NCBI GenBank assembly: GCA_918272565.1
Contig: CAKJYW010000002.1
Coordinates: forward strand, 44,266-108,265
From: Bacilli bacterium
GTDB taxonomy: Bacteria; Bacillota_I; Bacilli_A; ML615J-28; CAG-698
Direction: 5' to 3'
DNA: 64,000 bases
The stretch's first letter is position 1. The number at the start of each line of letters is the position of its first letter. The notes beneath the pieces are model-generated. The model had not been told where the DNA came from. It was given only the letters and a program-made list of their open reading frames with translations, and ran no database searches. A program made the translations under genes and the position numbers. Shown here one piece after another: positions 19,515-62,209 of this stretch.

Positions 19515-20078
19515 CTACTCCTCTTTTAAAATCATATCTACTTTCATCTTTCTAGCTTCATCTAATGACTGACGAGGCAAAAAATATCTAATAATTTTCT
19601 CGTCTTTCTCATCAATGGCATAATCAATTGGTAGATTGTTTATTTCATCTAATAACAAAATATCAGCACCATTATCTACTAACAACTTAACCATATCTAA
19701 GTTACCTTTAGTAACGGCTAGATGCAAAGGTGTCTGTTCTAATTCCGTTCCAATATTTACATCGCACCCATAATCAATCAAGCATTTAACGAATTTAAGT
19801 TTATCTTCCATAACCGCTTTATGAATAGGCGCATCTCCGCTTTCATTTGCTAAATTAACATTAACACCACTTTCTAAGAAAATCTTAAAAAGTCTTAAGT
19901 CGTTCATCTTAATAGCAAGATGCAGTAAAGTGTTACCACTAGAGTTTTGAGTGTTAATATCAATATCTTCTTCTTTTAATCTATTTAGTGTATTTTTGAT
20001 ATATAGATAACGATGGGGATCACATTTAATAGAATATACAAAGTCACTAAATTTCTTCTTATTTCCTCTTTTGTACAT
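19515..20078 (-). CDS. Ankyrin-repeat protein (3-4 ANK repeats)
   Basis: GNTLLHLAIKMNDLRLFKIFLESGVNVNLANESGDAPIHKAV...TPLHLAVTKGNLDMVKLLVDNGADI. Its start overlaps the 3' end of the upstream helicase-like gene by 20 nt. Confidence 0.75.
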   Translation of the reverse strand: MYKRGNKKKFSDFVYSIKCDPHRYLYIKNTLNRLKEEDIDINTQNSSGNTLLHLAIKMNDLRLFKIFLESGVNVNLANESGDAPIHKAVMEDKLKFVKCLIDYGCDVNIGTELEQTPLHLAVTKGNLDMVKLLVDNGADILLLDEINNLPIDYAIDEKDEKIIRYFLPRQSLDEARKMKVDMILKEE

Positions 20079-23000
20079 TCTTTCCTCGCTTCATCTCTTC
20101 TAGCATCTTTTCATAATCTTTCGCAATACCAATCTTTGATATTAGTTTTGTATCAAAACCACTATTTAAATGGTTTTCATAAACATCACGATAAGTATTC
20201 ATTGATTCATCAGGAGTAGCATTTCCCCATAAGATTATATCAGCTTGAATGTTTTCTTGATTATATCTATATATTACTCCATTAGATGAGCAACTTGCTT
20301 TATATCCATCAGTCTCTAGATGCTTCTTGATATGTTCCATAACAGGTGTAGCACTAACCTCAGGTAGAGCATTCTCACAAACAAGTAGCTTCTTAATTCC
20401 TAAATAGAAACGATAAGCAAATTCACCATCAAGTAACTTATTATCATCATAGATAACCACTTTGTTTTTAGTGATTAAAAGTGAATCAATCAAGTTATCA
20501 CTAATATAGTCGACATCGATTGTATAATAATCTTCTAAGAATAAGATATTATAATCGCTATCATAATAATAACCACTAGATAAATCACATACATTAACTT
20601 GAGATAGAAGCAATGATAAAATCACATCTTCATTAATTCCCTTAGATAAGAAATAACCAGCAAATGCTTCGATAAACTCACTTTGTTTACCGATTTGTTT
20701 GATAAAGACATTTACTTTGATATTACAATTACGTTTGTAATTATCGTAAATGTATTTACAAACATTACCAGTTAAAACTTCAATTCCACAGTTATCGTTA
20801 TAATTTCTAGCGATTAACCCACTTATGCCACTAACTTTACATTGTAAGTTCTTAGGCATTGGTGTGTAGCGGTAATCGAAAGTGATTGTAGCGACTTGTC
20901 TTGTTCTACTGATTAGGTTATTAATAACTGATGTGTGGGTAGGTTTTTCACCACTTATAATAACTTGTTTAGCTAAGATGAAATCACCATAAGCGCTAGA
21001 TGAAAGCAAATGAGCATCATCAATAATAACCAAATCAAAATAGTTCTTATCTAAATACAAATTACAAATATCACTACTAGCAAGTATTACTTGCTTACTA
21101 TTACGACGAACATAATCAGCGTAATCCATAAACTTCTTGTTAATGTTACCATTACGAGAAGGTTCTCTCTTAATTCTTGATAATAACTTTTCTTCGTTAT
21201 TAACTACAACTTTCTTTTCTAGTTTGTATATTTCTTCTAACTTATTAATAAATTCTAAACTATTTTCTAGTTCAGGATATTTCTTGAAATAGATATTTAT
21301 GATATTAGTGAAATAAGTGTACTTAAAGTCATCAACTAACCCTTCACCATACTTACATTTAGAAGCGTAATTAATTAAACCATCTAAATGATATTCAGTT
21401 AATGCACTTAATCCCTCATTAGCATTTAGATATAATTCTAATTCGCTAGTAGAATTAAGTAAAGTCTCTAAATAATTAACAGTTTCATCTAAATCACTAT
21501 AATAATATCTAGAAACACCATCAACAAACATATGAGAATATGCTTTAAAGATATCGTTGATTTCATCACCTGTCTTCTTACATTTATCTAGGTGAACACT
21601 AATCTTTTCATATGTTTCATTCTTAAGGGCATCTAAGAAGCCACGAGCAGAGCTAAATGATTCCACAAAATCATTGTATGCATCAATTAAATCTGATAAA
21701 GCATTAATATCAGTTGCTTCTCCTTTGTAAGCTTCACCGAATAGTCTTTCATATTCGTAGTTGATATCAAAGTGCTTCTTTAAGTTCTCTCTCTTCGATA
21801 AACTTTCCTTTAAGAAATAATATGTCTTACTAGAAACAAAGTTTCCTTCTTTCTTCTTTAAGATCTTCTTTAGTCTATCGTTAGATGCATAGATATTACG
21901 CAAATAATCTAACACTTCAGTGATTTCTTCAATCTTCTTATTGAAATCTTTACTTAAAGTGATTCTATAACTTCCAATTAATAAAGCTAAATCCTCTAAG
22001 CCATAATAAGTTCTACGGAAGTTATTCAAAGATTTATTGATAGAAACATTATCTTTCTTGCATACTTCAATCAAAATCTTAATGATGCTCTTCTTATAAG
22101 TTTTTGTTGAAATGCTATCGTAGTATTCTTTAAAGTCACTAATCTTTTCTAAAACATCGTTATTAGGACGATATTTCTCAAGTGTTAGTTCGCTATATTC
22201 CTCTTTCTTTATTCTTAGTCTTTGAATATCAGAGAAATATCTTCTAACATGAGAGATTTGCTCTTCTAGATTACCACGTCCAAAGTACTTCTTTAATACA
22301 GAAGCCAAAGCCTTCTTAACTTTCTTTTCGTTACTTTGAAGATATTCTTCAATCAAACTCAAGATATCTTTAGCTTTCATCATTGCAACTTTAGGATAAT
22401 CAGTTGTGAAGTCTTTGATGTAATGAGTAGCATCATTGATTTCTTCTAAAACACTAGATACTTTTTTATAATATCCATCATATTCATCATTATTAATAGC
22501 ATTAATAACATTGCTATTAATCTCATGACTATCCAAAAATGTCATTAACTTTAATAGTTCACCAATCGAATCGTTGTTCTTACCAAAGTTGTATCCACTA
22601 ATCTTTTCGAATGTGGCGATACTCTTTCTGTAGTTGGCTATTTGTTCATTACCATCTAGAACTCTAACCATAATATCATTACGATTAGCAAATAGTTCAT
22701 CAATCAAATCTAGGTCATTTCTTGTATAGTATTTACCCATTATTTCATTGATTTCATCGTTGATATTAATCAAATCATAATTGTTAAATACTTGACCCAA
22801 ATTGAAATTGATCTCTTGGTAACTAGCTACATTATTCTTTAAACGTCTAAATTCATTTTGAGCTTTTCTAAAGCTTGATAAGTCACTGGTTTTCCAGCTT
22901 GAAGGAACACTGCGAATATCAAGTGCCTCAATCTTAGAAACGATCTTACGTAAAGATGCATAGTCGTTAATCTTAACTATAGAAAACTTTTCTTCTAGTG

Positions 23001-24324
23001 CCTTCTTCTCTTTTTTAAAGATAGAGAAGCATTCATAAATTCTCTTAATTAGCGTCATTATGACTTTAGCATCGCTTGCTTTGTTAGTTCTAGCAAGTGA
23101 CTTCCAATTAGAGTCGTTAAATACACCCATAGATTTAAGCGCTTCTTGGATTTTCTCTAATGCCTTAACGACTTCTAGATATTCATTTTTATATATATTA
23201 GAAAGGTCATCAATATCAATGATATTAGGTTTCTTATCAATCAAATTGATGATTTCATCTATTACTTCAATAAAACGATGGTCTAAGATTCTACTTCCAA
23301 TCTTTTCTTCAATCGAATTAATATATTGATAATCATCTTCTAATAAAGAATAATCAATATCGATGTGTTTAGCTGTCCAATCTTTTAACACTTCGCTATA
23401 AATCTTTTGATATGAATTAGTTAGATTAGATACATTATTACCTAGTCCATAATTATCAAGGTAATCTTCTACACTATCTAAAGTCTCTTTCATATTAGAG
23501 ATAAATAGAGTCTTTTTATTATCATACATTGCATTAAGCAAAATGTTCTTTAGAGCTAAAGTCTTACCAGTTCCATTTCCCCCAACAATCGTAAAGCTCT
23601 TTCCTAGTTTACTAACATAAACAGCTTTTCGTTGTTTCTTGTTTAACATGTCCGCAAAATAAACATCGCTTCCACGTAAATACATCTTATCATAGAAGAT
23701 ATCATCTTCAATATTTAATTCAAACTGGTTAGAATCAATCATGAACTCACGATTAGCAACTTCACCAAATGTTAAATAGTTTTCGATTTCTAGTCCTAGT
23801 CCATCAATCTTAACGATTTGAATACAGAAATGGTCGATACCATAAATTGTATCTTCTTCTAATGAAAGGCCTTCGATACCTCTACTTGATAATACCTTAA
23901 GTAAATAAGGATTAACAAATGATGTGGCTATCTTTTGAATTAAGATATCGTTTTGTTCATAATAAAGTTTAACAGGTATTAAAACAGCAGGAACAAACAC
24001 TTCTTTTTTGTCCTTGATATATTTAACAATGCCATATGTGATAAATAGTTGTCTATTTATGTTTTTCTTATTGATATTAAGAAAATAAATATATGGCATG
24101 ATGTTACGCATCTTGCTATTATTTAAGTTACTATGTCCAATGCCGGTATTTTGAATAGGCAAGTAAGCAACATCACTTAAAGAAACTAGTTCTTTTTTGA
24201 TTATTCTTTCAAATACAGTGACGTCAATGTTTCCTAGTTCAACATAACAATTGTCATTGAATATATTATTAAGATGTTGATTGTTATTACTAAGTTTTAA
24301 TAGTAATTCTTTTGCCATAATCAA
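20059..24324 (-). CDS. Large SF1 (Upf1-like, AAA_11/AAA_12-type) helicase-like ATPase with DUF4011-like N-terminus, ~840-aa helical insertion and a possible Vsr/DUF559-like C-terminal tail
   Basis: N-terminal LFITYGIVKY...VFVPAVLIPVKL resembles the DUF4011 core. Walker A TIVGGNGTGKTLALKN at ~aa 245. Motif II-like LVIIDDAHLL at ~aa 1090. Lys/Glu-rich low-complexity region in between. C-terminal HLETDGYKAS...DIILWGN resembles the E.DG..H endonuclease-fold tail common on such helicases. 1421 aa. Confidence 0.5.
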   Translation of the reverse strand: MIMAKELLLKLSNNNQHLNNIFNDNCYVELGNIDVTVFERIIKKELVSLSDVAYLPIQNTGIGHSNLNNSKMRNIMPYIYFLNINKKNINRQLFITYGIVKYIKDKKEVFVPAVLIPVKLYYEQNDILIQKIATSFVNPYLLKVLSSRGIEGLSLEEDTIYGIDHFCIQIVKIDGLGLEIENYLTFGEVANREFMIDSNQFELNIEDDIFYDKMYLRGSDVYFADMLNKKQRKAVYVSKLGKSFTIVGGNGTGKTLALKNILLNAMYDNKKTLFISNMKETLDSVEDYLDNYGLGNNVSNLTNSYQKIYSEVLKDWTAKHIDIDYSLLEDDYQYINSIEEKIGSRILDHRFIEVIDEIINLIDKKPNIIDIDDLSNIYKNEYLEVVKALEKIQEALKSMGVFNDSNWKSLARTNKASDAKVIMTLIKRIYECFSIFKKEKKALEEKFSIVKINDYASLRKIVSKIEALDIRSVPSSWKTSDLSSFRKAQNEFRRLKNNVASYQEINFNLGQVFNNYDLININDEINEIMGKYYTRNDLDLIDELFANRNDIMVRVLDGNEQIANYRKSIATFEKISGYNFGKNNDSIGELLKLMTFLDSHEINSNVINAINNDEYDGYYKKVSSVLEEINDATHYIKDFTTDYPKVAMMKAKDILSLIEEYLQSNEKKVKKALASVLKKYFGRGNLEEQISHVRRYFSDIQRLRIKKEEYSELTLEKYRPNNDVLEKISDFKEYYDSISTKTYKKSIIKILIEVCKKDNVSINKSLNNFRRTYYGLEDLALLIGSYRITLSKDFNKKIEEITEVLDYLRNIYASNDRLKKILKKKEGNFVSSKTYYFLKESLSKRENLKKHFDINYEYERLFGEAYKGEATDINALSDLIDAYNDFVESFSSARGFLDALKNETYEKISVHLDKCKKTGDEINDIFKAYSHMFVDGVSRYYYSDLDETVNYLETLLNSTSELELYLNANEGLSALTEYHLDGLINYASKCKYGEGLVDDFKYTYFTNIINIYFKKYPELENSLEFINKLEEIYKLEKKVVVNNEEKLLSRIKREPSRNGNINKKFMDYADYVRRNSKQVILASSDICNLYLDKNYFDLVIIDDAHLLSSSAYGDFILAKQVIISGEKPTHTSVINNLISRTRQVATITFDYRYTPMPKNLQCKVSGISGLIARNYNDNCGIEVLTGNVCKYIYDNYKRNCNIKVNVFIKQIGKQSEFIEAFAGYFLSKGINEDVILSLLLSQVNVCDLSSGYYYDSDYNILFLEDYYTIDVDYISDNLIDSLLITKNKVVIYDDNKLLDGEFAYRFYLGIKKLLVCENALPEVSATPVMEHIKKHLETDGYKASCSSNGVIYRYNQENIQADIILWGNATPDESMNTYRDVYENHLNSGFDTKLISKIGIAKDYEKMLEEMKRGKNVQKRK

Positions 24325-25900: not shown

Positions 25901-26821
25901 TTAATCATCACTTTCTTCTAATGTTTCTAATATTGCTTCTATCTCTTTAAGGCTAGCCTTATAATTAATTGCTCCTTTATATAAAGTAGATAAAGATGCA
26001 CAAACATTTGAATAAATGATTGCTTTTTCTATATCATAATTATTTGACAAGCAGTAACATAGCATCGCATTAAAAGCATCACCAGCACCTGTTGTATCAA
26101 CTGGTGTTATTTTTATAGTTTCATATTTTGTAATAATTCCATCTTTGAAGTGAAGTGCTCCATTTTTACCAATTGTAACAATAACTTCTTTTATTTTTAG
26201 TTCATCCATTTTACTAGCAATTAGTTCTAAATCTTCATCTTCATCTAAATTAAAGATTGCTCTAGCTTCCCCTTCATTTGGAGTAATGATATCTGCAAAT
26301 TGTAAAAGGGATGCATATTCGCTATTATATGGAGCCGGATTAATGATAATCTTTACTCCTTTTTCTTTAGCAATACTAATAGCTTCTAAATTAGCACTAA
26401 AAGGAACTTCAAACTGAAGTGATAAGATATCACTTGCTTCGATTCTTTCTTTATAGTCTATAATATCATTTACTTTTAGTTTTAGGCTTGCCCCTGGATA
26501 TTCAGTAACGATGTTTTCTCCATATTTATCTTTTAAGATATAAGCAAAGGCAGTTTTATCATCTTTTTTAATTAAATCAAAATTGATTCCTCTTTTTCTT
26601 AAGTCGCTAATACACTTTTCTCCACCTTCATCATTTCCAATTGATGATAAGAAAAAGACATCAGTTCCAAGACTATTTAAAATAACTGCTTGGTTATAGC
26701 CTTTTCCTCCTACTTCTTCAGAGAAATTAGATGTAATTATTGTTTCACCTTTTTTAGGTAAATGATCTGACTCTAAAAAATAACTATTTCCACTTAATCC
26801 AATAACAAATACTTTATTCAT
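25901..26821 (-). CDS. rbsK: PfkB-family sugar kinase, ribokinase-like
   Basis: GGKGYNQAVIL and DTTGAGDAFNAML ribokinase signatures; 306 aa. Confidence 0.6.
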   Translation of the reverse strand: MNKVFVIGLSGNSYFLESDHLPKKGETIITSNFSEEVGGKGYNQAVILNSLGTDVFFLSSIGNDEGGEKCISDLRKRGINFDLIKKDDKTAFAYILKDKYGENIVTEYPGASLKLKVNDIIDYKERIEASDILSLQFEVPFSANLEAISIAKEKGVKIIINPAPYNSEYASLLQFADIITPNEGEARAIFNLDEDEDLELIASKMDELKIKEVIVTIGKNGALHFKDGIITKYETIKITPVDTTGAGDAFNAMLCYCLSNNYDIEKAIIYSNVCASLSTLYKGAINYKASLKEIEAILETLEESDD

Positions 26822-26911: not shown

Positions 26912-28726
26912 TTATTTAATATCTTCTTTAGGATCTTTACCTAAACGTTTTAATGTCTCAACAACATAGCTTTCACGATATTCATCTTTACTGCTTCTTT
27001 CATAAGCTGACTTGAAGAATTCTAGGTTAGCTTGTTCATAAGGAATACCAGCGATATTAGCGATGATTCTTGTTGAACGGTCGATTAGTTTCTTGTTTGT
27101 AGGTAAAACTTGGATCATCCAGTTACTCCAAACACGTCCCATCTTAGCCATTGTAGCTGTTGATAAAACGTTGAATGCTAACTTAACCATTAAGTGAGTC
27201 ATTAATTCATTAGAAGTTCTTGTTAATTTAACAGGAATTAAGATTTCGTTTTCGTATTTCTTTCCCTTAGAGATTTCACCCATACGGATTAAAACACCTT
27301 TTTCAAACTTCTTAACTTCTTCTTTGAACCATGCAAGTACTTCAGGAGTAGCACTGCCATTAATATCCATACAAACTAATACGTTAGGTTTACGTGAGTA
27401 ACGTGATTCATCATCACAGTTACCGATGTTGTATTGTTCTACTTCTTCGCTTCCAACTTTAGGCATATTTGCGATAATGTCAGGAGCAGCTTCAAGTCTA
27501 ATATAGTCTTCCTTAGTCCAGTTAAGACCTTTGATTGGACGACGGAATACATGTTGCCATGCAACTTCATTAGGATATAGAGGGTCTTTAACGTATGCCC
27601 AACTTAATTCAGCATTCTTATCATTGAATTTTCTAAATGGTGGAAGTGTGAATGTTGGTTGACGTTCAGTTGTATCAGTCATAATATCAAGTAGATAATC
27701 ATGTGTACAATAAGTAACTAGTCCATGGTTATCATAAATTGATTTTTCAAGTTCAACTGCAGCAGCTAAGCCTTTTAATGCTTTTCCGCTTGATAGTTGT
27801 TTGTTGATGGCTTTGAATTGTTTTGCATATTCGTTGATATCTAAAGCAACGATTCCTGCAACTTCTTTTTCAGCTTCAGTTAAGTTTTCATCACACCACT
27901 TTTGACATGCTAGTTCAAATGCGGCACCAGCAACTAATAATTCAACTGTAGTTACTTGCATACGAGTTGATCCACTAACTGCCATGTTACCAACAAATAA
28001 TGGCATCTTAATGATGTTAGGACGAGCAAATACTTTTCTAACTCTCTCTAAGTGTTCGCAAAGAATATTTTTTGGATTACAGAATAAATAATAAGTAGTA
28101 CATCCACGGATGTCAGCTTCAATTACTGAACCATTGATTGATGCAGAAAGACCGCACTCAGATAAACCAAGTAGTACATCACCAACACCAATTCCTGCTT
28201 CTCTTACTTGTTCAGCACCAAATGTCATATAGTCTTCGAAGTTTTCTACACTTCTAACTAATGCTCTATCGCCACCTGTAGTAAATGATTCAACACGATT
28301 AGCGTTATACATGAATTGTTCACGCTTTGCTGGAATCTTATTAGCAAGGTTAGTCCAGAAATATCTCCATGCTGCATCTAGTTGAATAGCCATTCTTCCA
28401 CTAGCACCAACTGAAGAAATAACAACTCTCTTGTTTTCATCAATAACACGTTTGCAATCATCAACTAATCTAGCAAATTCTTTTGACTTGAATGCACGTG
28501 CAGCAACTGTTGGAATATCAACATGCTTTCCTTCATAAGTGTTCTTAACATCAGCTGATAAGATCATAGCAACACCAGCAGCTGTGTCTTTAGCGATTGT
28601 TGCGCTCAAGTTACGTGTCAAAACGTTAGATTGTTCAGTAGGAATTACACCTAAATGGAATTGTTTTTCATTTTCAATGAAATCTTTAGAGGCTAACTTA
28701 TAGTCCTTTATATCTTTATAATCCAT
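26912..28726 (-). CDS. Long (604 aa) GCKR/MurQ-family SIS-domain protein (N-acetylmuramic-acid-6-phosphate-etherase-like / glucokinase-regulator-like)
   Basis: The segment VSGSTRMQVTTVELLVAGAAFELA matches the conserved MurQ/GCKR loop [23 protein letters not shown], and VISSVGASGRMAIQL looks SIS-like. At ~600 aa it is twice the length of MurQ, as in eukaryotic GCKR. Confidence 0.4.
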   Translation of the reverse strand: MDYKDIKDYKLASKDFIENEKQFHLGVIPTEQSNVLTRNLSATIAKDTAAGVAMILSADVKNTYEGKHVDIPTVAARAFKSKEFARLVDDCKRVIDENKRVVISSVGASGRMAIQLDAAWRYFWTNLANKIPAKREQFMYNANRVESFTTGGDRALVRSVENFEDYMTFGAEQVREAGIGVGDVLLGLSECGLSASINGSVIEADIRGCTTYYLFCNPKNILCEHLERVRKVFARPNIIKMPLFVGNMAVSGSTRMQVTTVELLVAGAAFELACQKWCDENLTEAEKEVAGIVALDINEYAKQFKAINKQLSSGKALKGLAAAVELEKSIYDNHGLVTYCTHDYLLDIMTDTTERQPTFTLPPFRKFNDKNAELSWAYVKDPLYPNEVAWQHVFRRPIKGLNWTKEDYIRLEAAPDIIANMPKVGSEEVEQYNIGNCDDESRYSRKPNVLVCMDINGSATPEVLAWFKEEVKKFEKGVLIRMGEISKGKKYENEILIPVKLTRTSNELMTHLMVKLAFNVLSTATMAKMGRVWSNWMIQVLPTNKKLIDRSTRIIANIAGIPYEQANLEFFKSAYERSSKDEYRESYVVETLKRLGKDPKEDIK

Positions 28727-28882: not shown

Positions 28883-30685
28883 CTATTCAATTATTTCAAA
28901 TATTTCTACTAAATTCATCACTTTAATATTAGGATAAGAAGTAGGTTCACTTTTAGCACTTTTTTCAAAATCGCTCTTGCTTCCACAGTACTCATTTCCT
29001 GCACTCTCATTACCAAATCTCTTACCGAATCCATTATTATAATTGAGGTATTCTTCAAAATCATTGTAATGATTATATGTATAGAATACTTTTCTTTGAT
29101 TAATCGATTTAATGCTTTTATCACTAATAAAGCAGAACCTTGCGGCACCACGATTGATTGTTGTGCCCGTGTTATACACTTTTTGTGTATATTTAGTTCC
29201 AGTAACCTTGTTTTCGTTTGTGTAACCACCTAATGTTCCAAAGTCAGTTTCAGTGTATTCATAGATACTAATCCCTGGCATCTCTGGTTCATATGGCCAT
29301 TTTGAGCTATCATACATCATAATATCTTGATTAACCCTACCATAAATACCAAAGTCAGCGATACAATCACTCTTGCCTTTTGATTTATCGTATTTGTTAT
29401 TAACTGGAGTCTCTCCAAATGCTAGGATGTATGCAGCAACTTCATTTAAAGAAGCATATGCTCCACCATACCAAATCATTTGGAAATTGCCTTCTAAATC
29501 ATTAGGTAAATATCCTAAATAGCCTCCATTATAATCAAGCACATAAAAGGCATGAGTTAAATAAATATATGTATCTTCATAAGTTACATCATATTTATTA
29601 GGGATGTGTCCTTGAGGAGTGATATCACCACTCATAAGACCATGAAGTGATCTAAAATAAGAGTCTATATAACTATCTGCTTCACTATAATTATTATAGA
29701 ATTCTTCTTTATCGATACCAGCATAAGGGTCTGTAGCACTACTAATATCATATGAAGTAAAGACACAATAAACATCATCACCATAGATATCTAAATCAAT
29801 TCCATAAGGATTATCAACATCATTAGAATAAATTATAATATCATTGCCTAATACTGAATATAAATATTCTTTATATGATAATTCATATTCATCATAACTA
29901 ATGAAATTATTAACTTTAGCTAATTCTATTTCATTATAGATGATAGAAACATATTTATTACTACTAACGCTAGTAATAAAACCAGTTATTTTTACTTCTT
30001 TATCTAAATAATTGTTTAATGATGATGCATCAATTGGATAAGCAACGCTTATTACGGCTTTAGCTCCATCAATTATCAAATTATAATATGAACCACTTTT
30101 AATTAATGTACCAGCTACACTTACATATTCAGCTTTGATTTCATCGACACTTAAATAATTATCTAAAGCAGCTTTATCAACTTCTTTTGGTTTACTAAAG
30201 TGGATGTCCCATGTTCCTTCTTTAGTATAGGTTGATGATTTATCAAATTGAATTGATTTACCATAACTTACAACATTACCAACAACACTTACTGTATCAC
30301 CAATAGCTAGATCAGTAGTCCAAGTGTTTCCTAAATAAACCAAAATGTTACCAGTTCCATCGCTAAGCAAGAAGCTTTCCTTATTCACCGCTAAAACAAC
30401 ACCTATAGTTTTAGCTTCACCTAACTTTAATTCACTTATCTTTGAATAGTCATCTTGAGGTTGCTCATCTTCCTTAGGGTCTTCTTCGCCTGGTTCTTCC
30501 TCTTGAGGCACTTGTTCCTCTTCAGGCACTTGTTCCTCTTGAGGTTCTTCCTCTATAGGATCATCTATTATTGGATCTTCTTCTTTAGGGGGATTTTGTT
30601 CGGTTTCTAAAAAGGAACAAGCACCTAATATCAAGCTAAAGAATAAAAGTAAAACCAATAATATCTTTTTATAATTAATCTTCAT
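28883..30685 (-). CDS. Surface lipoprotein with acidic EEQVPEEE repeat and an OB-fold-like module, function unknown
   Basis: Lipobox SLILGACSFLE. Low-complexity EEEPQEEQVPEEEQVPQEEEPGEEDPKEDEQ. LKLGEAKTIGVVLAVNKESFLLSDGTGNILVYL resembles tRNA_anti/YhcR-type OB folds. 600 aa. Confidence 0.45.
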   Translation of the reverse strand: MKINYKKILLVLLLFFSLILGACSFLETEQNPPKEEDPIIDDPIEEEPQEEQVPEEEQVPQEEEPGEEDPKEDEQPQDDYSKISELKLGEAKTIGVVLAVNKESFLLSDGTGNILVYLGNTWTTDLAIGDTVSVVGNVVSYGKSIQFDKSSTYTKEGTWDIHFSKPKEVDKAALDNYLSVDEIKAEYVSVAGTLIKSGSYYNLIIDGAKAVISVAYPIDASSLNNYLDKEVKITGFITSVSSNKYVSIIYNEIELAKVNNFISYDEYELSYKEYLYSVLGNDIIIYSNDVDNPYGIDLDIYGDDVYCVFTSYDISSATDPYAGIDKEEFYNNYSEADSYIDSYFRSLHGLMSGDITPQGHIPNKYDVTYEDTYIYLTHAFYVLDYNGGYLGYLPNDLEGNFQMIWYGGAYASLNEVAAYILAFGETPVNNKYDKSKGKSDCIADFGIYGRVNQDIMMYDSSKWPYEPEMPGISIYEYTETDFGTLGGYTNENKVTGTKYTQKVYNTGTTINRGAARFCFISDKSIKSINQRKVFYTYNHYNDFEEYLNYNNGFGKRFGNESAGNEYCGSKSDFEKSAKSEPTSYPNIKVMNLVEIFEIIE

Positions 30686-32937
30686 TATTCAAAATATTCC
30701 TTTTTTATCATCTCTAAATCTTCTCTAATCTTAATATGTTGAGGACAAAGAGTTTCGCACTTACCACACTTCTTGCATAAATCTGGAGTCTCGCCATCTT
30801 TCTTAATTTGACCGATTGACCATTCTTGTTTTATTCCATACATCTTTGAGTCATTAGCAACTCTAAAGATTCTAGGGATATTAACTCCAAATGGACAAGG
30901 CATACAGTACCTACATCCTGTACATGAATTTAATACTCTAGTTTTAAATACTTTAACCGCTTCGCAAATAGCATCATTTTCTCTTTTTGAAAAATATGTT
31001 AAAGATTTAAAAGTATTAATATTATCTTTTACTTGATCTTCGCTACTCATTCCACTTAAGATTACCATGATGTTATCAAATTGAGCAACATACCTTAACG
31101 CCCAACTAGCACTACTCCAAGTGCTATTTACTTTATCTAGACTACTTCTTACATCATCTGGTAACCTTGCTAGTGCTCCACCTTTAACAGGTTCCATAAT
31201 AATTACTGGAATACCTTTTTCTTTACATAGTTTTAAGCCTTTTAATCCTGCTTGATTATCAACGTCTAGATAATTAAACTGGATTTGGCAAAAATCCCAC
31301 TTGTGATAATTAATAATTTCACTAAATGCTTCATAGCTATCATGGAAAGAGAATCCTAAATGACGAATCTTTCCTTCTTTTTTAAGCCCTTCAAAATATT
31401 CAATTAAACCTAATTTCTTAATTGCTTCAAAGCGCTCTTTTCCAATAGCGTGGAATAAATAATAATCAAAATAGTCTTTATGTAGTTTAGTTAGTTGCTC
31501 ATTAAATAGGCGCTTTGCATCGTCTAACGTATTTACTAAATACATTGGAAGTTTTGTGGCTAGATTATAGGTAGATCTATCATATCTATCTAAGACTTCC
31601 CCTACAAAGAGTTCACTTTCTCCATCATGATACATATACGCAGTGTCATAATAATTGATACCTTGTTTATAGGCATAATCAATCATCTCACTAGCTTTCT
31701 CTCTATCAATCTTACCATCTTTTTGAGGAAGGCGCATACAACCAAAGCCAAGTAGACTTATCCTATCATCAGTTTTCTTTCTGTATTCTAATTTTCCCCT
31801 TATATGAGTTGATAGTTCTAGCGTCTTGGTTTCTTTAGTTTCATTATCAATTAAGATGATTTTATAACTAATGTCTTCATCTTTTTCTGGTAATTCTTTG
31901 ATTCTACCATTTGGTAAAACAATATCGCTAGAGCATTCAAACTTGATATCTATTCCTTTAGATAGTTTTAATACTTCTAGCTCCACTTCAACCATTTTCT
32001 TAAAGTTCTCCCACAAATTAGCATGGCGCATTGTCATAGGGCAATCTTTACCACTAAAGAAGTGATGAGGTTTTACTCTTGTTACATCTAAATTATTATC
32101 AAGACATAAATGACTAACAAGCTTAGCACATCTTTGCCATGTTAAATAAAGGTCACTACCTTCATTAACCATTGTTTCTATACCTATTGAGTGTAAATTG
32201 CCACCACGATTAGAAATATAACCGTATCCAGCGCTAAAATATGTTGGACCCATGTAATATTTACCATCAATTAGGTCAATTCTTATTCCTTCATCGTTGA
32301 TTTTAGTTGGGTAGAATTCTTCACCATCTTTTGCACCCTCTGGAGCAAGGCGACGCTGGATCGCTCCATTACAATAATAATGAAGTTTTCCATCTTCACC
32401 CATCTTAAATAAAACTTTAGGAGAAGCAATTTCACTTTTCTTGTTATCGATATAATAATATCCATCAATTATTTCTACTTTTGGATTAGGATTAGTCCCA
32501 CTAACCCCAGTATCAGTTAAGCTAAATGGTACACTTGTTCCATCGCCTGCGTGATATGCCACTTCATCATCAGGTACTTGATGGTAAATCGCATCATCAC
32601 CACTAGAATAGTGCCAACTAGTTCCGCCACCACCATTAGATACATACTTTGCATGAGCTAGGGCGTTAGCAGTTGGTGCAGCGGATGCAGTATCGTGAAC
32701 AACTACATATTCAGTTGATGTTTTAATAGTCCCTGGGCGGTTGTTATTAGGCCCTTCACCATTTTTAGGACAGATATATTCAATAACTTCATGATCCATA
32801 AACAAATATTTGTTTACTGAACCAATTACTCTAGTACCATAATTGTACTGATATCCAAAGGCTTCTAAATCTTTAACAATAACTTCTTTTTCATTTGCAT
32901 CTTTTAAAATAGATGCGATTTTTTCTAATCTACTCAT
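30685..32937 (-). CDS. Fusion protein: N-acetylmuramoyl-L-alanine amidase (Amidase_2/PGRP fold) + aldo/keto reductase with C-terminal 4Fe-4S ferredoxin-like domain
   Basis: Amidase_2 motifs VVVHDTAS, AYHAGDG, NLHSIGIE and KPHHFFSGKDCP (aa ~75-300). AKR core LGFGCMRLPQ...YYDTAYMYHDGESE (aa ~395-700). Cys cluster CTGCRYCMPCPFG...CKKCGKCETLCP at the C-terminus. Single uninterrupted 750-aa ORF. Confidence 0.6.
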   Translation of the reverse strand: MSRLEKIASILKDANEKEVIVKDLEAFGYQYNYGTRVIGSVNKYLFMDHEVIEYICPKNGEGPNNNRPGTIKTSTEYVVVHDTASAAPTANALAHAKYVSNGGGGTSWHYSSGDDAIYHQVPDDEVAYHAGDGTSVPFSLTDTGVSGTNPNPKVEIIDGYYYIDNKKSEIASPKVLFKMGEDGKLHYYCNGAIQRRLAPEGAKDGEEFYPTKINDEGIRIDLIDGKYYMGPTYFSAGYGYISNRGGNLHSIGIETMVNEGSDLYLTWQRCAKLVSHLCLDNNLDVTRVKPHHFFSGKDCPMTMRHANLWENFKKMVEVELEVLKLSKGIDIKFECSSDIVLPNGRIKELPEKDEDISYKIILIDNETKETKTLELSTHIRGKLEYRKKTDDRISLLGFGCMRLPQKDGKIDREKASEMIDYAYKQGINYYDTAYMYHDGESELFVGEVLDRYDRSTYNLATKLPMYLVNTLDDAKRLFNEQLTKLHKDYFDYYLFHAIGKERFEAIKKLGLIEYFEGLKKEGKIRHLGFSFHDSYEAFSEIINYHKWDFCQIQFNYLDVDNQAGLKGLKLCKEKGIPVIIMEPVKGGALARLPDDVRSSLDKVNSTWSSASWALRYVAQFDNIMVILSGMSSEDQVKDNINTFKSLTYFSKRENDAICEAVKVFKTRVLNSCTGCRYCMPCPFGVNIPRIFRVANDSKMYGIKQEWSIGQIKKDGETPDLCKKCGKCETLCPQHIKIREDLEMIKKEYFE

Positions 32938-33044
32938 AAAAACTCCCCTATATAATTAGTATACCAAAAATAACAATGTAAATATATATTTTTATTATAA
33001 AGTCTCCCCTCTTATGTTATAATAATTAGGCATGGAGGTTTATT

Positions 33045-33563
33045 ATGGAAAAACCAATTGTTAAAATAATAATGGAAAATAGTAAAGAAATATTAATAGA
33101 GCTATATCCTGAAGTTGCTCCTATATCAGTAGATAACTTCTTAAAGTTAGTTGATGAAAAATATTATGATGGAGTATGCTTCCATAGAGTCATTGAGGAT
33201 TTTATGATTCAAACAGGTGGATATTTTGTAAAAGGGAACTCAATAGACACAACTAAAAAGACTCCTTCAATAAAAGGAGAATTTAACTCAAACGGAGTTC
33301 GTAACGACCTTCACCACATTCCTGGAGTAATCTCAATGGCTAGAACTAGCGATAAAAACAGCGCTTCAAGCCAGTTCTTTATCTGCTCAGCTAAGTGCCC
33401 TCACTTAGATGGAGAATATGCGGCATTCGGAAAAGTTTTGGATGAGGCAAGTTTAGATGTGGTAATGGATATTTCTAGATCAAATACCATTAATGTTGGT
33501 GGAGGATTAACCGACTTTCCGTATCCCGTAATAAGCATTAAAACAATAGAAAGAGTGAAATAA
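33045..33563 (+). CDS. ppiB: Peptidyl-prolyl cis-trans isomerase, cyclophilin type
   Basis: FHRVIEDFMIQTGG ... MARTSDKNSASSQFFI cyclophilin signatures; 172 aa. Confidence 0.85.
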   Translation: MEKPIVKIIMENSKEILIELYPEVAPISVDNFLKLVDEKYYDGVCFHRVIEDFMIQTGGYFVKGNSIDTTKKTPSIKGEFNSNGVRNDLHHIPGVISMARTSDKNSASSQFFICSAKCPHLDGEYAAFGKVLDEASLDVVMDISRSNTINVGGGLTDFPYPVISIKTIERVK

Positions 33564-34007
33564 ATGAAAGTAGCAATCGTATTAGGATATTATTTAAATG
33601 ATGATGGTTCTCCTCGTGATAGACTTGTAGCAAGACTTAAATTAACTTTAGATATGATCAAAGACTTAAATCCTGATAAAATCATCGTTTCAGGTGGCAT
33701 AGCTAATAGAAAAGCAGGAGTTAGTGAAGCAAGCGTAATGGGCAAATGGCTAATTGATAATGGTGTAGACAAAGATATGATAATCTACGAAGAAAAGAGT
33801 GGATCAACTAGAGGTAACGCTATCTACTCAATGCCAATGGCACTAGCCTTAAACCCTGATATGGTCATCTTAGTATCTACAATGGATCATTTTGTTGATC
33901 AACCATATAACACAATAGCATATTTCAATGATATGTTTGACAGTAGAAACATTAACTTCTTAATTTATTCAAAAAGCAAAACAGAAAAACCATTTAGTGG
34001 GGATTAA
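33564..34007 (+). CDS. DUF218 (YdcF/ElyC/SanA-like) domain protein
   Basis: VLGYYLNDDGSPRDRLVARLK...IIVSGG...ASVMGKWLIDNGV pattern typical of DUF218; 147 aa. Confidence 0.55.
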   Translation: MKVAIVLGYYLNDDGSPRDRLVARLKLTLDMIKDLNPDKIIVSGGIANRKAGVSEASVMGKWLIDNGVDKDMIIYEEKSGSTRGNAIYSMPMALALNPDMVILVSTMDHFVDQPYNTIAYFNDMFDSRNINFLIYSKSKTEKPFSGD

Positions 34008-34049: not shown

Positions 34050-35012
34050 TTATTCAAACAACTCACGACTTTCCATTATTTCACAAATCAAAGGTACATA
34101 GATATCTTTTTCTTCGATTTTGATGATTGTTGTGATGCTACTCCCACTATCTTTACTAGATGAGCCGCAGTGATATAAGGTATATTCTTCTGTATTAAAA
34201 TCAATAACAATATATCTATCATGGAATCTTTTATTGTTCTTCTTAAACTCTAATTTTAGTTTTGTTTCACTTTTAAAATCTTCTACAATACTCTTAGTGA
34301 GACCATTTCTAGCTAGATTATCACTAAATAGTATTATTTCTATATTTTGTTTAACCCCTTTTAAGAGCTCTAGTGTTTTAATACTAATATAATCATCGAT
34401 TATATAAATTGACTTTTTTGCAAAACTATATATCTTTTGATATGCCGTATCAGCTTCAAACTTACATCCATCTAAAATGAGGAAGTGCTTATAATCATTA
34501 AAATCCACAAAATATTTCATCACTATATCAAGCCTAGAATTAATATCGATAATTGCCTCTGTATTAGTGTTCACTTGATTTGATAATTTGAGAATACTAT
34601 CAATTTTTGTAATGCCATCATTTTCATAAATATAATCCTTCATTTGTTTGAAAGCTCTAATTAATGACTTGCTTTGTTTTATAGCCAAATCACCTTTCAA
34701 AACTGTCATAAGCATGTAAATTCCTTGTTCAGTAAAGGCATATGGTGCCGTCCTTCGACCTCCCCATCTTGATATCGCATTTTGCGATATCAAGATATTA
34801 TTCCATTCATTTTCAGTCAGTTGAAATCTGAAATAATCATCAAATCTATCAATGTTTCTTTTTACTTGTTCGTTAAATCTCATTGTTGAAAAGCCATAGA
34901 TTTTAGCCAAATCAAAATCTAGCATAACTTTTTGACCACGTATTTCATATATAATTGACTTGATTGCTTCACTATCTAATTTAAAAACTACTACTTCGCT
35001 TTTATTATCCAT
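34050..35012 (-). CDS. ORF6N (KilA-N-like, phage-associated DNA-binding) domain protein with uncharacterised C-terminal domain carrying a PLD-like H.R....D..GSS pattern
   Basis: N-terminal IRGQKVMLDFDLAKIYGFSTMRFNEQVKRNIDRF...FQLTENE matches the ORF6N consensus. C-terminal KRFHDRYIVIDFNTEEYTLYHCGSSS. Confidence 0.5.
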   Translation of the reverse strand: MDNKSEVVVFKLDSEAIKSIIYEIRGQKVMLDFDLAKIYGFSTMRFNEQVKRNIDRFDDYFRFQLTENEWNNILISQNAISRWGGRRTAPYAFTEQGIYMLMTVLKGDLAIKQSKSLIRAFKQMKDYIYENDGITKIDSILKLSNQVNTNTEAIIDINSRLDIVMKYFVDFNDYKHFLILDGCKFEADTAYQKIYSFAKKSIYIIDDYISIKTLELLKGVKQNIEIILFSDNLARNGLTKSIVEDFKSETKLKLEFKKNNKRFHDRYIVIDFNTEEYTLYHCGSSSKDSGSSITTIIKIEEKDIYVPLICEIMESRELFE

Positions 35013-47536: not shown

Positions 47537-47577
47537 AAAAATATGCTTCCCAAAAGGGAAGCATTATTTTTTATCCT
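47537..47577. terminator. Bidirectional Rho-independent terminator
   Basis: aaaaaaaTATGCTTCCCAAAAGGGAAGCATAtttttt sits between convergent genes. Confidence 0.55.
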
Positions 47578-54678: not shown

Positions 54679-54751
54679 GTTTACCTCCAAGAATAATTCT
54701 TTGTAAGCCTTTTCTTACATATATATTTTATCATACATAGCAATATCAAAC

Positions 54752-55714: not shown

Positions 55715-56545
55715 CTATATTGAAACATATGTGTCAAGTAGCGAATATACTTCGCCATTATAAATACAAGTAATAACAAGGTGGATATGCTCTTTATTAG
55801 TGAAATCAGCTTCACTAATATCTATTCTTTGTTCGGTAGTGTATCCATCCAAAAAAAAGTACTCTATCTCATTCCCTTTATCATCACTTAAATACGCTTT
55901 AAATTCATAATATGTATATTCCGTATCAATAAAATCAAGCTTTATATGGAAGCATCCATCGATATTACACTTACATTCGTAACTTACTTTAATATCACCA
56001 ATATCAGTAACTATAACATCATGTTGCTTCTTAGTCTTAACTTCAATTTCTTTGATTACATCATTACCATATCTTTCTTCTCCACAAACAGCTAATTTGT
56101 AGCTTGTCTCAGCTTCTAGTTCCATAAACTCACCAGAATTAAAACCACTATAACCAATCACTTCGTATTCATAGTTATCATTATACAATTTGATTGTTAA
56201 ATCTTCAGTGCTTTCTCCGATATCGATGTGATAAAAGATTTCATTTTCTCCAACTTCGACCATCTCAAACTCTACATTAGGTCGCTCATTTAAGATATCC
56301 ATATTTAGAATAAATAGTGTAGCCACAACCGCAACAGTTCCGGTTGCAGCAGTGTAAGTCATAGCTTTAATAATAGTATTAATGGTATCCATTATTTTAT
56401 TACTCTTTTTGCTAGTACCACTACTATTTGTTGCCCCCACATTAAATTCATCTGGAATTTGATATTCTTTTGCTTCACTAAATTCATTTGGTTGGGTGTT
56501 CGTTGGCTTTGGAGTGGATACTATTTCATTGAATTCGTCTTTCAT
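55715..56545 (-). CDS. Hypothetical bitopic membrane protein (cytoplasmic N-tail, one TM, extracellular beta-rich domain)
   Basis: TM segment AATGTVAVVATLFILNM; no recognisable motifs. Overlaps the upstream gene by 4 nt, suggesting translational coupling. Confidence 0.3.
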   Translation of the reverse strand: MKDEFNEIVSTPKPTNTQPNEFSEAKEYQIPDEFNVGATNSSGTSKKSNKIMDTINTIIKAMTYTAATGTVAVVATLFILNMDILNERPNVEFEMVEVGENEIFYHIDIGESTEDLTIKLYNDNYEYEVIGYSGFNSGEFMELEAETSYKLAVCGEERYGNDVIKEIEVKTKKQHDVIVTDIGDIKVSYECKCNIDGCFHIKLDFIDTEYTYYEFKAYLSDDKGNEIEYFFLDGYTTEQRIDISEADFTNKEHIHLVITCIYNGEVYSLLDTYVSI

Positions 56546-62194: not shown

Positions 62195-62209
62195 AATAAT
62201 TCTTCCTTT

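Follow-up and report, generated by a model that had tools for sequence, protein, structure and literature searches.

Several described systems come close to the two halves of the protein analysed here. Amidase_2 amidases (PF01510) with solved structures include the prophage endolysins XlyA and PlyL (PDB 3hmb, 1yb0), and the superfamily also comprises AmpD, the cytoplasmic 1,6-anhydro-MurNAc-L-Ala amidase of Gram-negative peptidoglycan recycling. In MurQ-based catabolism, MurNAc passes from a MurNAc kinase or PTS through the MurQ etherase to NagA/NagB. On the oxidoreductase side stand the aldo/keto reductase (AKR) AKR11C1 (PDB 1ynp), the AKR-type L-galactose dehydrogenases and a family of about 370-415 aa that combines Aldo_ket_red with Fer4_9/17, referred to below as AKR-Fer4. 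The locus described here, located within a stretch of 64,000 nucleotides of a Bacilli contig (the window), joins an amidase of the first kind to an AKR-Fer4 protein.

Gene structure and domain composition

The first-pass annotation of the window had reported a single continuous ORF fusing Amidase_2 to an aldo/keto reductase, and this reading holds (Table 1). The stop codon of the ORF (30685-30687) overlaps the start codon of the following gene in the sequence TAATG, the base composition is smooth along the whole ORF, and its continuity is backed by at least seven independently assembled contigs from at least six samples. Since the upstream region contains no in-frame extension and no earlier in-frame start, the protein is devoid of a signal peptide, and no transmembrane segment was detected at its N-terminus. 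A domain scan, proposed as a check in the same annotation, supported Amidase_2 in the N-terminal part and Aldo_ket_red together with Fer4 in the C-terminal part. The ORF is taken to encode an authentic protein of two functions, in which every catalytic and ligand residue is intact.

Table 1. Features of the fusion gene and its surroundings (positions in the window)
Feature	Residues	Position	Strand	Remarks
PfkB kinase		25901..26821	-	context; weak linkage to the fusion
MurQ/GKRP-like SIS protein		26912..28726	-	604 aa; context; weak linkage to the fusion
Fusion ORF	1-750	30685..32937	-	single ORF, 750 aa + stop codon; orthologs align full-length
Ferredoxin-like tail	666-750	30688..30942	-	two four-Cys motifs, predicted 2x[4Fe-4S]
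AKR (alpha/beta)8 barrel	383-665	30943..31791	-	tetrad D431, Y436, K462, H496
Fusion junction	382-383	31789..31794	-	codons K382 (AAA) and L383 (TTA); TAA-AAC-ATG (stop, spacer, start) in unfused L030
C-terminal helix and small beta-sandwich	316-382	31792..31992	-	part of the amidase module
Amidase_2, second half	243-315	31993..32211	-	E254 (SIGIE); H291, K297, C299 (HHFFSGKDCP)
All-beta insertion within the amidase fold	135-242	32212..32535	-	108 aa
Amidase_2, first half	64-134	32536..32748	-	Zn ligand H81 (VVVHDTAS), Y128 (AYHAGDG)
N-terminal lead-in	1-63	32749..32937	-	one helix and beta strands
Shine-Dalgarno AGGGGAG		32943..32949	-	strong; 5 nt 5' of the ATG at 32937
Divergent PPIase		33045..33563	+	context; syntenic anchor
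DUF218 gene		33564..34007	+	context; syntenic anchor

The amidase half

Because an insertion splits the domain, the match to Amidase_2 falls into two parts (E 9.4e-14; 52.3 bits, cut-off 26). XlyA aligns to residues 64-134 and 243-314, with both blocks meeting at XlyA residue 85, and this alignment fixes at 108 aa an insertion that had been estimated at about 110. The inserted segment is modelled with high confidence, is conserved through the amidase family and is constrained (dN/dS 0.08-0.21); no clear counterpart was found among solved structures. The four Amidase_2 motifs listed in the first-pass annotation are all in place (VVVHDTAS, 78-85; AYHAGDG, 127-133; HSIGIE, 249-254; HHFFSGKDCP, 291-300). 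The Zn ligands H81, H291 and C299 and the catalytic residues E254 and K297 align with the XlyA motifs, and all five belong to the positions that never vary among 41 family members or among the fused orthologs. The half adopts the T7-lysozyme/PGRP alpha/beta fold in the predicted model. The lead-in is conserved in every member of the amidase family, cytoplasmic or lipoprotein, and residues 316-382 correspond to the protein end in unfused relatives. The N-terminal 382 residues are thus a complete member of a family of Zn-dependent amidases, with N-acetylmuramoyl-L-alanine linkages as the putative substrate. A role as a muropeptide amidase is probable.

The family to which this half belongs is large and had previously gone unremarked; it consists of amidases of about 380 aa that lack a signal. 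The stand-alone members (more than 90 clusters, 345-408 aa) are annotated with Amidase_2 only, and all those with the N-terminus read begin at the module and carry no signal. Nearly all of the longer paralogs possess a lipobox; these are surface lipoproteins of bacteria of the same kind, with the amidase module as their C-terminal part. Because the family is signal-less, its members, like the fusion protein, are predicted to be cytoplasmic.

The AKR-Fer4 half

The complete AKR barrel previously assigned to the C-terminal half is confirmed by a Pfam match to Aldo_ket_red (PF00248; residues 396-657, E 6.1e-41; 140.8 bits, cut-off 24) and by an intact D-Y-K-H tetrad, which is invariant in the fused orthologs and aligns to that of AKR11C1. 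The barrel fold also matches this enzyme, with a target-normalised Foldseek TM of 0.78 and 28% identity. The best NCBIfam match of this half is methylglyoxal reductase, which scores far below its cut-off. The ferredoxin-like tail matches Fer4_9, Fer4_17 and Fer4_8 over residues 669-735 (E about 4e-7, above cut-off; Fer4_9 30.6 against 27, Fer4_17 30.6 against 22.2). The 4Fe-4S tail noted at first is therefore present, but it carries two Cys motifs instead of the one CxxCxxCxxxCP reported: C672xxC675xxC678xxC681P, with an atypical CxxCxxCxxCP spacing, and C721xxC724xxC727xxxC731P. All eight cysteines are invariant in the fused orthologs and the tail evolves at a dN/dS of about 0.17 where measurable. 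The pairing of the motifs indicates a dicluster domain, which is predicted to bind both clusters. The use of NAD(P)(H) by this half is predicted from motif resemblance, and TAT-exported relatives raise doubt about free NAD(P)H as the universal cofactor of the subfamily.

The C-terminal 368 residues constitute a complete AKR with a 2x[4Fe-4S] tail and come from a widespread family. Its members, named just "aldo/keto reductase" by the sources, are mostly stand-alone or TAT-exported and at times occur as four tandem paralogs. Elsewhere they are joined to UDG+NUDIX, MsrA, GNAT, GyrI-like, FkbM, TPP-enzyme, His-phosphatase or TM1506 domains, and no shared theme was found in the gene contexts of the homologs. 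Our search yielded no characterised member, solved structure or functional study of the family. As AKR-Fer4 proteins fuse so promiscuously, the fusion alone is weak evidence for metabolic coupling.

Distribution and origin of the fusion

The search of other genomes suggested by the first-pass annotation led to full-length fused orthologs (P0001-P0005 and L004) in five lineages, at 70-99% identity and from independent assemblies. Their mean column identity is 82%, and the junction peptide RGKLEYR is invariant in all of them. Acholeplasmatales bacterium Tener_01 from NCBI is the sole named MAG carrying the fusion. The only basis for regarding these bacteria as wall-less is the placement of the nearest MAG in the NCBI taxonomy. 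The fusion is rare, being present in five clusters (90% identity) among 5.8 billion; when 1.84 billion representatives were searched exhaustively, the best 150 matches contained no further Amidase_2+AKR fusion, and no publication describing this combination was found in the literature, in keeping with the initial impression that it had not been reported. The fusion belongs to a small Acholeplasma-like group of gut or digester bacteria, and what is new is the domain architecture, the component parts being known. In every segment pN lies far below pS (dN/dS 0.06-0.32 where dS is unsaturated); each segment is under purifying selection and the fusion is maintained by selection.

The unfused state is preserved in two lineages. 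In the first (P0271; L030-L032, 24 contigs read), a 383-aa amidase and a 372-aa AKR-Fer4 protein are separated by a 3-nt in-frame spacer at the same PPIase/DUF218...GKRP/PfkB/HflX position as the fusion; in the second (L034), the two genes overlap as TAATG. The proteins are orthologous to the halves of the fusion (66-68% and 62% identity) and translationally coupled, but remain two polypeptides. Direct comparison of the junction DNA with that of unfused L030 shows that the fusion arose by a TAA to AAA change and the loss of one codon between adjacent, co-translated genes. At the junction, the fused form has one codon fewer than stop, spacer and start together, and therefore does not represent simple read-through. 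The stop-codon loss joined the two genes before the members of a narrow Acholeplasmatales-like clade diverged. Relatives at 60-62% identity carry amidase, MatE and unknown protein genes at the same site and have no AKR there; the AKR gene was recruited late. The PPIase and DUF218 anchor is common to the fused, unfused and pre-AKR states. Both the reality of the fusion and this origin are held with high confidence.

Genomic context

The neighbouring genes had been taken as signs of a muropeptide or amino-sugar salvage locus, an argument that proves weak. The MurQ/GKRP-superfamily protein and the sugar kinase lie 2-6 kb downstream of the fusion. Their spacing from it varies, with different genes inserted in each lineage, and outside the fusion clade none of the loci has a GKRP or PfkB gene less than 6 kb from the amidase; the linkage is clade-level synteny only, not that of a conserved operon. 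The MurQ/GKRP-like protein reaches 116, 92 and 89 bits with MurQ models that have cut-offs of 168, 255 and 302 (the first pair being that of the NCBIfam MurQ model), and in the PDB its best matches were MurQ first and GKRP second, the architecture being GKRP-like. A 600-aa lipoprotein neighbour, formerly described as an OB-fold protein, was inserted in a lineage-specific manner and could be assigned to no family; none of the tools supported an OB-fold. Elsewhere the window encodes a signal-less GH3 and NagB, which, like the MurQ/GKRP-like protein, fit a peptidoglycan context; none of the known families of MurNAc or anhMurNAc kinases was recognised.

A different arrangement emerges in at least seven other lineages, where the gene order is amidase, extended SDR and GHL10 lipoprotein. 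The SDR, an NAD(P) oxidoreductase unrelated to AKR, occupies the slot directly after the stand-alone amidase, and either SDR or AKR-Fer4 follows the amidase at a distance of 0-11 nt. E. coli DigH, an enzyme that breaks down denuded peptidoglycan glycans (PMC12288456), is a member of GHL10. The gene order speaks for a role in peptidoglycan salvage alongside a redox partner. The oxidoreductase neighbour is missing at several stand-alone amidase loci (L028, L029, L044, L033, L097).

Possible function and alternative explanations

It may be proposed, as the most likely mechanism, that peptidoglycan fragments are imported, originating from neighbouring bacteria via surface hydrolases or from the cell's own wall, if present, and that the amidase half strips MurNAc of its stem peptide. 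An NAD(P)-linked carbonyl oxidation or reduction by the reductase half would follow, acting on the sugar so released or on a carbonyl compound derived from it, with the Fe-S tail serving as an electron conduit or structural element. The fusion would set a 1:1 ratio and hold both activities near each other. The predicted model of the whole protein (mean pLDDT 93.4, pTM 0.83) is consistent with a fixed inter-domain arrangement. Leaving aside the chemistry of the redox step, this scheme as a whole is the explanation that we are inclined to accept, if by a modest degree of belief.

The fusion hints at a redox step in peptidoglycan scavenging. The coupling of muropeptide cleavage to redox chemistry suggested in the first-pass annotation gains from the earlier translational coupling and the SDR partner, and loses from the late arrival of a promiscuous AKR and the loci without an oxidoreductase; true chemical coupling of the two halves is possible, yet doubtful. 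Reduction of MurNAc at C1 would block the MurQ etherase route, and therefore, to our knowledge, no established pathway requires such a redox step.

The foremost alternative is that two independent enzymes without a common substrate, encoded adjacently and in frame, were harmlessly joined by a stop mutation, AKR-Fer4 being a general carbonyl or redox-stress enzyme. A one-nucleotide change suffices to join such genes, the AKR was inserted late, and the methylglyoxal reductase match, however distant, agrees with this reading, as do the many unrelated AKR-Fer4 partners, several of which serve damage repair (MsrA, UDG+NUDIX), and an MsrA gene two genes downstream at the unfused sister locus. Nevertheless, the genes were tightly coupled in translation before they fused, in two ways in the two unfused lineages, and the fusion has been retained over five lineages beyond synonymous saturation with both halves constrained. 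Moreover, a non-homologous NAD(P) oxidoreductase fills the same slot in at least seven other lineages, and the high pTM suggests that the domains may pack together. An incidental fusion thus seems rather unlikely, though it deserves consideration.

Much less probable is a regulatory role, in which AKR-Fer4 would sense NAD(P)H/NAD(P)+ or, via its clusters, oxygen or redox state and gate the amidase, much as Kv-beta (AKR6) modulates K+ channels. Kv-beta subunits do turn up as relatives of the barrel, both by sequence and by structure, Fe-S clusters are frequent sensors and a fusion would fit allosteric control. Against this, the full catalytic tetrad is invariant, the SDR partner elsewhere has no sensor-like feature, and the family is far more common as stand-alone or TAT-exported proteins, with its tandem paralogs, a picture typical of catalytic diversification. 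The regulatory Fe-S sensor envisaged in the first-pass annotation found no specific support.

It is also highly improbable that the amidase is a prophage remnant, i.e. a signal-less XlyA-like phage lysin joined to a host gene by chance. Endolysins are without signal peptides, the best solved relatives are the prophage endolysins XlyA, PlyL and LysGH15, and an ORF6N-domain gene lies 1.1 kb away (34050-35012); this gene, however, is missing from L001 and L003, holin, tail and capsid genes are absent at the compared loci, the chromosomal synteny between lineages is stable (PPIase, DUF218, glycine-cleavage operon, HflX), and the more than 90 stand-alone clusters reside in conserved housekeeping contexts.

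Finally, rare architectures are sometimes artefacts, and one miscalled stop-codon base could mimic a fusion of the L030 genes, which share a reading frame, but a false fusion by frameshift or chimeric join is rejected for the clade as a whole and has a negligible probability, given the same RGKLEYR junction in independent contigs of different samples at 70-99% identity, the codon missing from the fused form and the even composition of the ORF.

Comparison with known systems

Compared with the XlyA/PlyL type, the fusion protein has the extra beta insertion after HAGDG, adds the N-terminal lead-in and the C-terminal beta-sandwich, and has no cell-wall-binding domain; it is encoded in a non-phage chromosomal setting, is probably cytoplasmic and is joined to an oxidoreductase. 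With AmpD it shares the superfamily and the cytoplasmic location, and both presumably remove peptides from imported muropeptides, although the amidase half bears no close sequence or structural resemblance to AmpD and its His-His-Asp site. The MurQ pathway has in common with this locus a MurQ/GKRP-superfamily protein and a sugar kinase, whereas here the former is of the GKRP type and scores below the MurQ cut-off, the local kinase is a PfkB, which is no known MurNAc kinase family, and the linkage is broken by different genes in each lineage and absent outside the clade. AKR11C1 and the AKR-type L-galactose dehydrogenases share the barrel fold and the tetrad, but lack the Fe-S tail, and at such low identity their substrates are not transferable. 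The stand-alone AKR-Fer4 proteins P0123-P0130 are 46-50% identical to the C-terminal half and bear the same Cys motifs; many of their relatives are TAT-exported or joined to other domains, whereas here the partner is an amidase.

Domain composition of the fused protein

The product of the 750-codon ORF starts behind a strong Shine-Dalgarno sequence and has no in-frame extension upstream; neither a signal peptide further upstream nor another start was found. The Pfam scan detected Amidase_2 in two stretches (E 9.4e-14) of the N-terminal half, followed by the aldo-keto reductase (AKR) and 4Fe-4S domains listed in the table. All of the motifs quoted in the first-pass annotation were located in the protein, and the insertion within the amidase, put there at ~110 aa, was measured at 108 aa (residues 135-242), since XlyA, the PBSX endolysin, aligned at residues 64-134 and 243-314, both stretches abutting XlyA residue 85. 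The cysteine cluster of the Fe-S tail was likewise present, but it consists of two Cys motifs rather than the single one described earlier. GC content and skew run smoothly across the ORF.

Structure prediction gave a pLDDT of 93.7 and a pTM of 0.92 for the amidase module (residues 1-382), and a mean pLDDT of 93.4 and a pTM of 0.83 for the full-length protein, the latter scores being consistent with a defined inter-domain arrangement. The C-terminal half was modelled as a standard AKR barrel, with AKR11C1 (Foldseek TM 0.78) and AKR-type L-galactose dehydrogenases as top matches, bearing a helical tail that holds the Cys motifs. The Foldseek search of the full model against the PDB returned AKR barrels only, and no solved AKR with such an Fe-S tail.

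Features of the window and of related loci. Positions refer to the window, to the fused protein (residues) or to the contig locus named (L numbers).
Feature	Sequence	Position	Strand	Remarks
Amidase/AKR-Fer4 fusion	window	30685-32937	-	single ORF, 750 aa
Aldo_ket_red	fused protein	396-657		Pfam, E 6.1e-41
4Fe-4S dicluster models	fused protein	669-735		Pfam, E about 4e-7
ORF without Pfam hit on record	window	20059-24324	-	1421 aa; conserved
Counterpart of this ORF	L001	16624-20883		1419 aa
GKRP/MurQ-like protein	window	26912-28726	-	604 aa
Lipoprotein	window	28883-30685	-	600 aa; lipobox LGAC
ORF6N-domain gene	window	34050-35012	-	phage antirepressor-like; between DUF218 and glycine-cleavage operon
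Four paralogous lipoproteins	window	47571-49847, 50007-52289, 52432-54690, 58206-60458	-	~750 aa; three Big_2 repeats each
Two genes without family match	window	55715-56545, 56542-58116
Double-GNAT protein	window	60519-61472	-
NagB	window	61469-62194	-
GH3	window	62210-63745	-	signal-less; NagZ-type beta-N-acetylhexosaminidase
Amidase–SDR–GHL10 cassette	L038	5233-11986		human-gut Bacilli MAGs; also L027, L042, L045, L091
Tandem AKR-Fer4 paralogs	L016	8001-13083
Putative surface cell-wall hydrolases	L097	17764-21164		CHAP+Big_2 protein; 856-aa GH3
Amidase lipoproteins	L020	10499-18283		>3000 aa, with Amidase_2 domain; 760 aa

Conservation of the fusion

Among 5.8 billion clustered proteins the same architecture was recovered in five full-length clusters, one with 99% identity (P0001) and four with 70-73% (P0002-P0005). 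It also occurs in one named genome, the MAG "Acholeplasmatales bacterium Tener_01" (Mollicutes), whose protein matches at 73% across residues 1-750. The fusion is thus confined to about five species-level lineages, and the architecture is absent from the literature searched. In the five-way alignment of the fused proteins (mean column identity 82%), the amidase residues H81, Y128, H291, K297 and C299, the AKR tetrad D431, Y436, K462 and H496, all eight cysteines of the Fe-S tail and the junction peptide RGKLEYR are invariant. Codon comparison with three orthologs showed that pN falls far short of pS in each segment (synonymous sites being near saturation, with dN/dS of 0.06-0.32 where measurable); hence selection maintains both halves as well as the insertion and the Fe-S tail. 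The orthologs, the invariant junction and the signature of selection exclude an assembly or frameshift artefact for the clade: the fusion is genuine and conserved, and both of its halves are intact.

Origin of the fusion

Three successive states of the locus, namely before recruitment of the reductase, with adjacent genes and fused, were all observed next to the same PPIase gene (-). In L033 and L097, where the amidase shares 60-62% identity with that of the window, it is followed by MatE and a ~420-aa protein without Pfam match, and there is no AKR. In L030-L032 and L034 (66-68%, tblastn), a 383-aa amidase and a 372-aa AKR with a ferredoxin-like tail (AKR-Fer4) are encoded by separate, translationally coupled genes; this state was recognized from the database protein P0271 (64% identity by BLASTP) and read on 24 contigs. 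In the window, L001-L004, L023 and L024 (69% or more), both parts form one ORF of 750-756 aa.

The gene order of L030, which occupies the same syntenic site as the window, is PPIase(-), amidase, AKR-Fer4, beta-lactamase-family protein, MsrA, GKRP-like protein, MscS, PfkB, RNR and HflX. Its unfused junction reads ...AGA GGA TAA AAC ATG GAA TAT AGA AAA, with both genes in one frame, and the fused junction of the window reads ...AGG GGA AAA TTA GAA TAC AGA AAG, so that the change amounts to the conversion of the stop codon TAA to AAA and the loss of one codon. L034 (68%), representing a second unfused lineage, has a TAATG overlap in place of the spacer. The fusion, built from known domains, therefore arose by stop-codon loss in a translationally coupled gene pair, which is a trivial genetic event. 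Even if it were incidental, it would provide a clean and fully traced case of gene fusion by this route.

The amidase family and its genomic contexts

The amidase-type hits of the first search all hold a ~380-aa module, which includes a 60-aa lead-in and a 70-aa trailing beta domain, at the C-terminus, preceded by a lipoprotein signal together with Big_2 or Flg_new repeats; among these matches the module begins at residue 1 in the fusions only. An exhaustive search of 1.84 billion representatives together with a profile search (697 hits at E <1e-20, more than 90 of the best 120 being single-domain) showed that signal-less amidases of 345-408 aa, standing alone, form a large family; they are up to 65-68% identical to the N-terminal half of the fusion and, where the source gives a name, are called "N-acetylmuramoyl-L-alanine amidase [Bacilli bacterium]". 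Since such proteins are abundant, the cytoplasmic form is the norm in this subfamily and the lipoproteins are exported paralogs. The N-terminal half accordingly constitutes a complete, cytoplasmic representative of an XlyA-like amidase family. Literature searches combining Acholeplasmatales or Mollicutes with amidase found nothing relevant.

In at least seven distinct lineages (L027, L035, the L038 group, L042, L045, L059 and L091; amidases 49-59% identical) the amidase belongs to a cassette with the order uridine kinase(-), amidase, extended SDR, GHL10+Flg_new lipoprotein and a ~437-aa protein that matches nothing in Pfam or the PDB. The gap between amidase and SDR measures just 0-11 nt. The SDR has about 315 aa and shows Epimerase, 3Beta_HSD and NAD_binding_4 signatures; among proteins of known structure it is related to sugar and steroid hydroxyl oxidoreductases and epimerases. 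The slot just after the amidase is thus taken by NAD(P)-type oxidoreductases of two unrelated superfamilies, SDR and AKR-Fer4. The cassette lipoprotein shares 24% identity (E 2e-14) with E. coli DigH, itself a member of the GHL10 family (453 bits), which breaks down peptide-free peptidoglycan glycans (PMC12288456). This kinship places the amidase family in a context of peptidoglycan degradation. A redox neighbour beside every stand-alone amidase was also considered; it holds for the SDR clade but fails for L028, where only DUF362 and Trx are nearby, and for L029, L044, L033 and L097. In L033, too, the amidase is followed by a homolog of the ~437-aa protein, and in L097 that position is taken by a gene of similar size (420 aa, no Pfam match).

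Putative surface cell-wall hydrolases are encoded near the amidase of L097, and in L020 a very large lipoprotein with an Amidase_2 domain lies beside a second amidase lipoprotein. Both observations agree with extensive degradation of peptidoglycan outside the cells of these lineages.

The AKR-Fer4 family

AKR-Fer4 proteins very commonly exist on their own (about 370-380 aa; the closest share 46-50% identity), and the C-terminal half of the fusion counts as a complete member of this AKR+2x[4Fe-4S] family. In other phyla, twin-arginine signal peptides are found on many relatives. Because extracytoplasmic Fe-S AKRs would have no access to free NAD(P)H, the cofactor assumed for the subfamily becomes questionable. 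L016-L019, the closest AKR-Fer4-only homologs of the first search, have such TAT signals (MNRREFLK...) and comprise four tandem paralogs beside tatA, a poly-ferredoxin gene, a LarC-like gene and GH42/DUF4838 genes. The contexts of unfused homologs shared no common theme and held no amidase, and literature searches on AKR+4Fe-4S and COG1453 found no paper addressing the family.

Elsewhere AKR-Fer4 is joined to UDG+NUDIX, MsrA, GNAT, GyrI-like, FkbM methyltransferase, TPP-enzyme, histidine phosphatase and TM1506 domains (P0160, P0134, P0181, P0183, P0192, P0203, P0218 and P0236). Damage-repair enzymes account for several of these partners, and MsrA is also encoded two genes downstream of AKR-Fer4 in L030.

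Neighbouring genes

The first-pass annotation had read the surroundings of the fusion as suggesting a muropeptide or amino-sugar salvage locus. A MurQ/GKRP-superfamily protein and a PfkB kinase are indeed encoded 2-6 kb downstream, but their linkage to the fusion varies and is limited to the clade: both genes are absent from all amidase loci outside it, and in other lineages MarR, ABC, DUF1538 and P-II genes, or beta-lactamase and MsrA genes, stand where the window has the 600-aa lipoprotein gene, between the fusion and the GKRP-like gene. In addition, none of the MurQ cut-offs is reached by the MurQ-like protein. These features, like the absence of the lipoprotein from relatives, speak against a tightly knit pathway locus. 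The GKRP/MurQ-like protein shares 93-96% identity with its counterparts in L001-L003, as against 81-88% for the PPIase and only 70-73% for the fusion, which indicates unusually strong constraint on a bacterial GKRP-type protein.

The stop codon of the fusion overlaps the start of the 600-aa lipoprotein gene (TAATG). This lipoprotein has no relatives in Pfam, NCBIfam or the PDB, and searches of these databases supported neither the OB-fold attributed to it earlier nor an RNase-like C-terminus. Of the contigs, only the near-identical L023 and L024 have it, L023 in two pieces (408+196 aa); being missing from the 70%-identity relatives, it represents a lineage-specific insertion. The ORF6N gene, which L023 shares but L001 and L003 lack, probably represents a small mobile insertion.

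The GH3, NagB and GNAT genes (60519-63745, -), some 28 kb away from the fusion, make up an amino-sugar catabolism module. The four Big_2 lipoproteins, one of which contains an SBP_bac_8 solute-binding domain above threshold, surround an MscS channel gene and two genes without family match. The 1421-aa ORF is flanked by hflX on one side and by an ankyrin-like or DAC (cdaA) gene cluster on the other. The window holds no second copy of either half of the fusion, no SDR, GHL10, Udk, beta-lactamase or MsrA homolog, and no tRNA or Rfam feature.

Possible function

The amidase half would probably strip stem peptides from imported muropeptides, as suggested by its intact active site, its cytoplasmic location and the peptidoglycan-hydrolase contexts of the family. 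Far more tentatively, the reductase half might act on the sugar product or on a carbonyl compound derived from it, a reading favoured by the descent from an operon, the persistence of the fusion and the parallel case of the SDR partner. Its main rival, that the fusion is incidental and functionally neutral, is about as likely, and draws on the promiscuous fusion of the AKR-Fer4 module elsewhere and on its late recruitment to this site. To our knowledge, none of the MurNAc pathways established so far needs a redox step, and reduction of MurNAc at C1 would be incompatible with the MurQ mechanism. If both halves do share one metabolite, the fusion would be a "Rosetta stone" for the AKR+2x[4Fe-4S] family, giving it a first physiological context, amino-sugar or muropeptide catabolism, and pointing to an unknown redox step in peptidoglycan salvage.

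Regardless of such coupling, the XlyA-like amidases uncovered in gut and digester Bacilli MAGs related to the wall-less Acholeplasmatales form a large cytoplasmic family whose paralogs are surface lipoproteins, and this combination suggests that the hosts feed on the cell walls of other bacteria. The present host is presumed wall-less solely from the taxonomy of the nearest MAG; should it make peptidoglycan, this enzyme could serve to recycle the host's own wall.

It is a speculative and rather improbable extension that these bacteria are wall-less, Acholeplasma-like foragers of peptidoglycan with an obligatory cytoplasmic amidase–oxidoreductase pair. Surface lipoprotein amidases and DigH-like glycan hydrolases would then take apart the walls of neighbours, the cytoplasmic amidase would be partnered by an extended SDR in most lineages and by the fused Fe-S AKR in this clade, and the partner would perform a new redox step on MurNAc or the disaccharide, as an alternative to, or upstream of, the MurQ etherase route.
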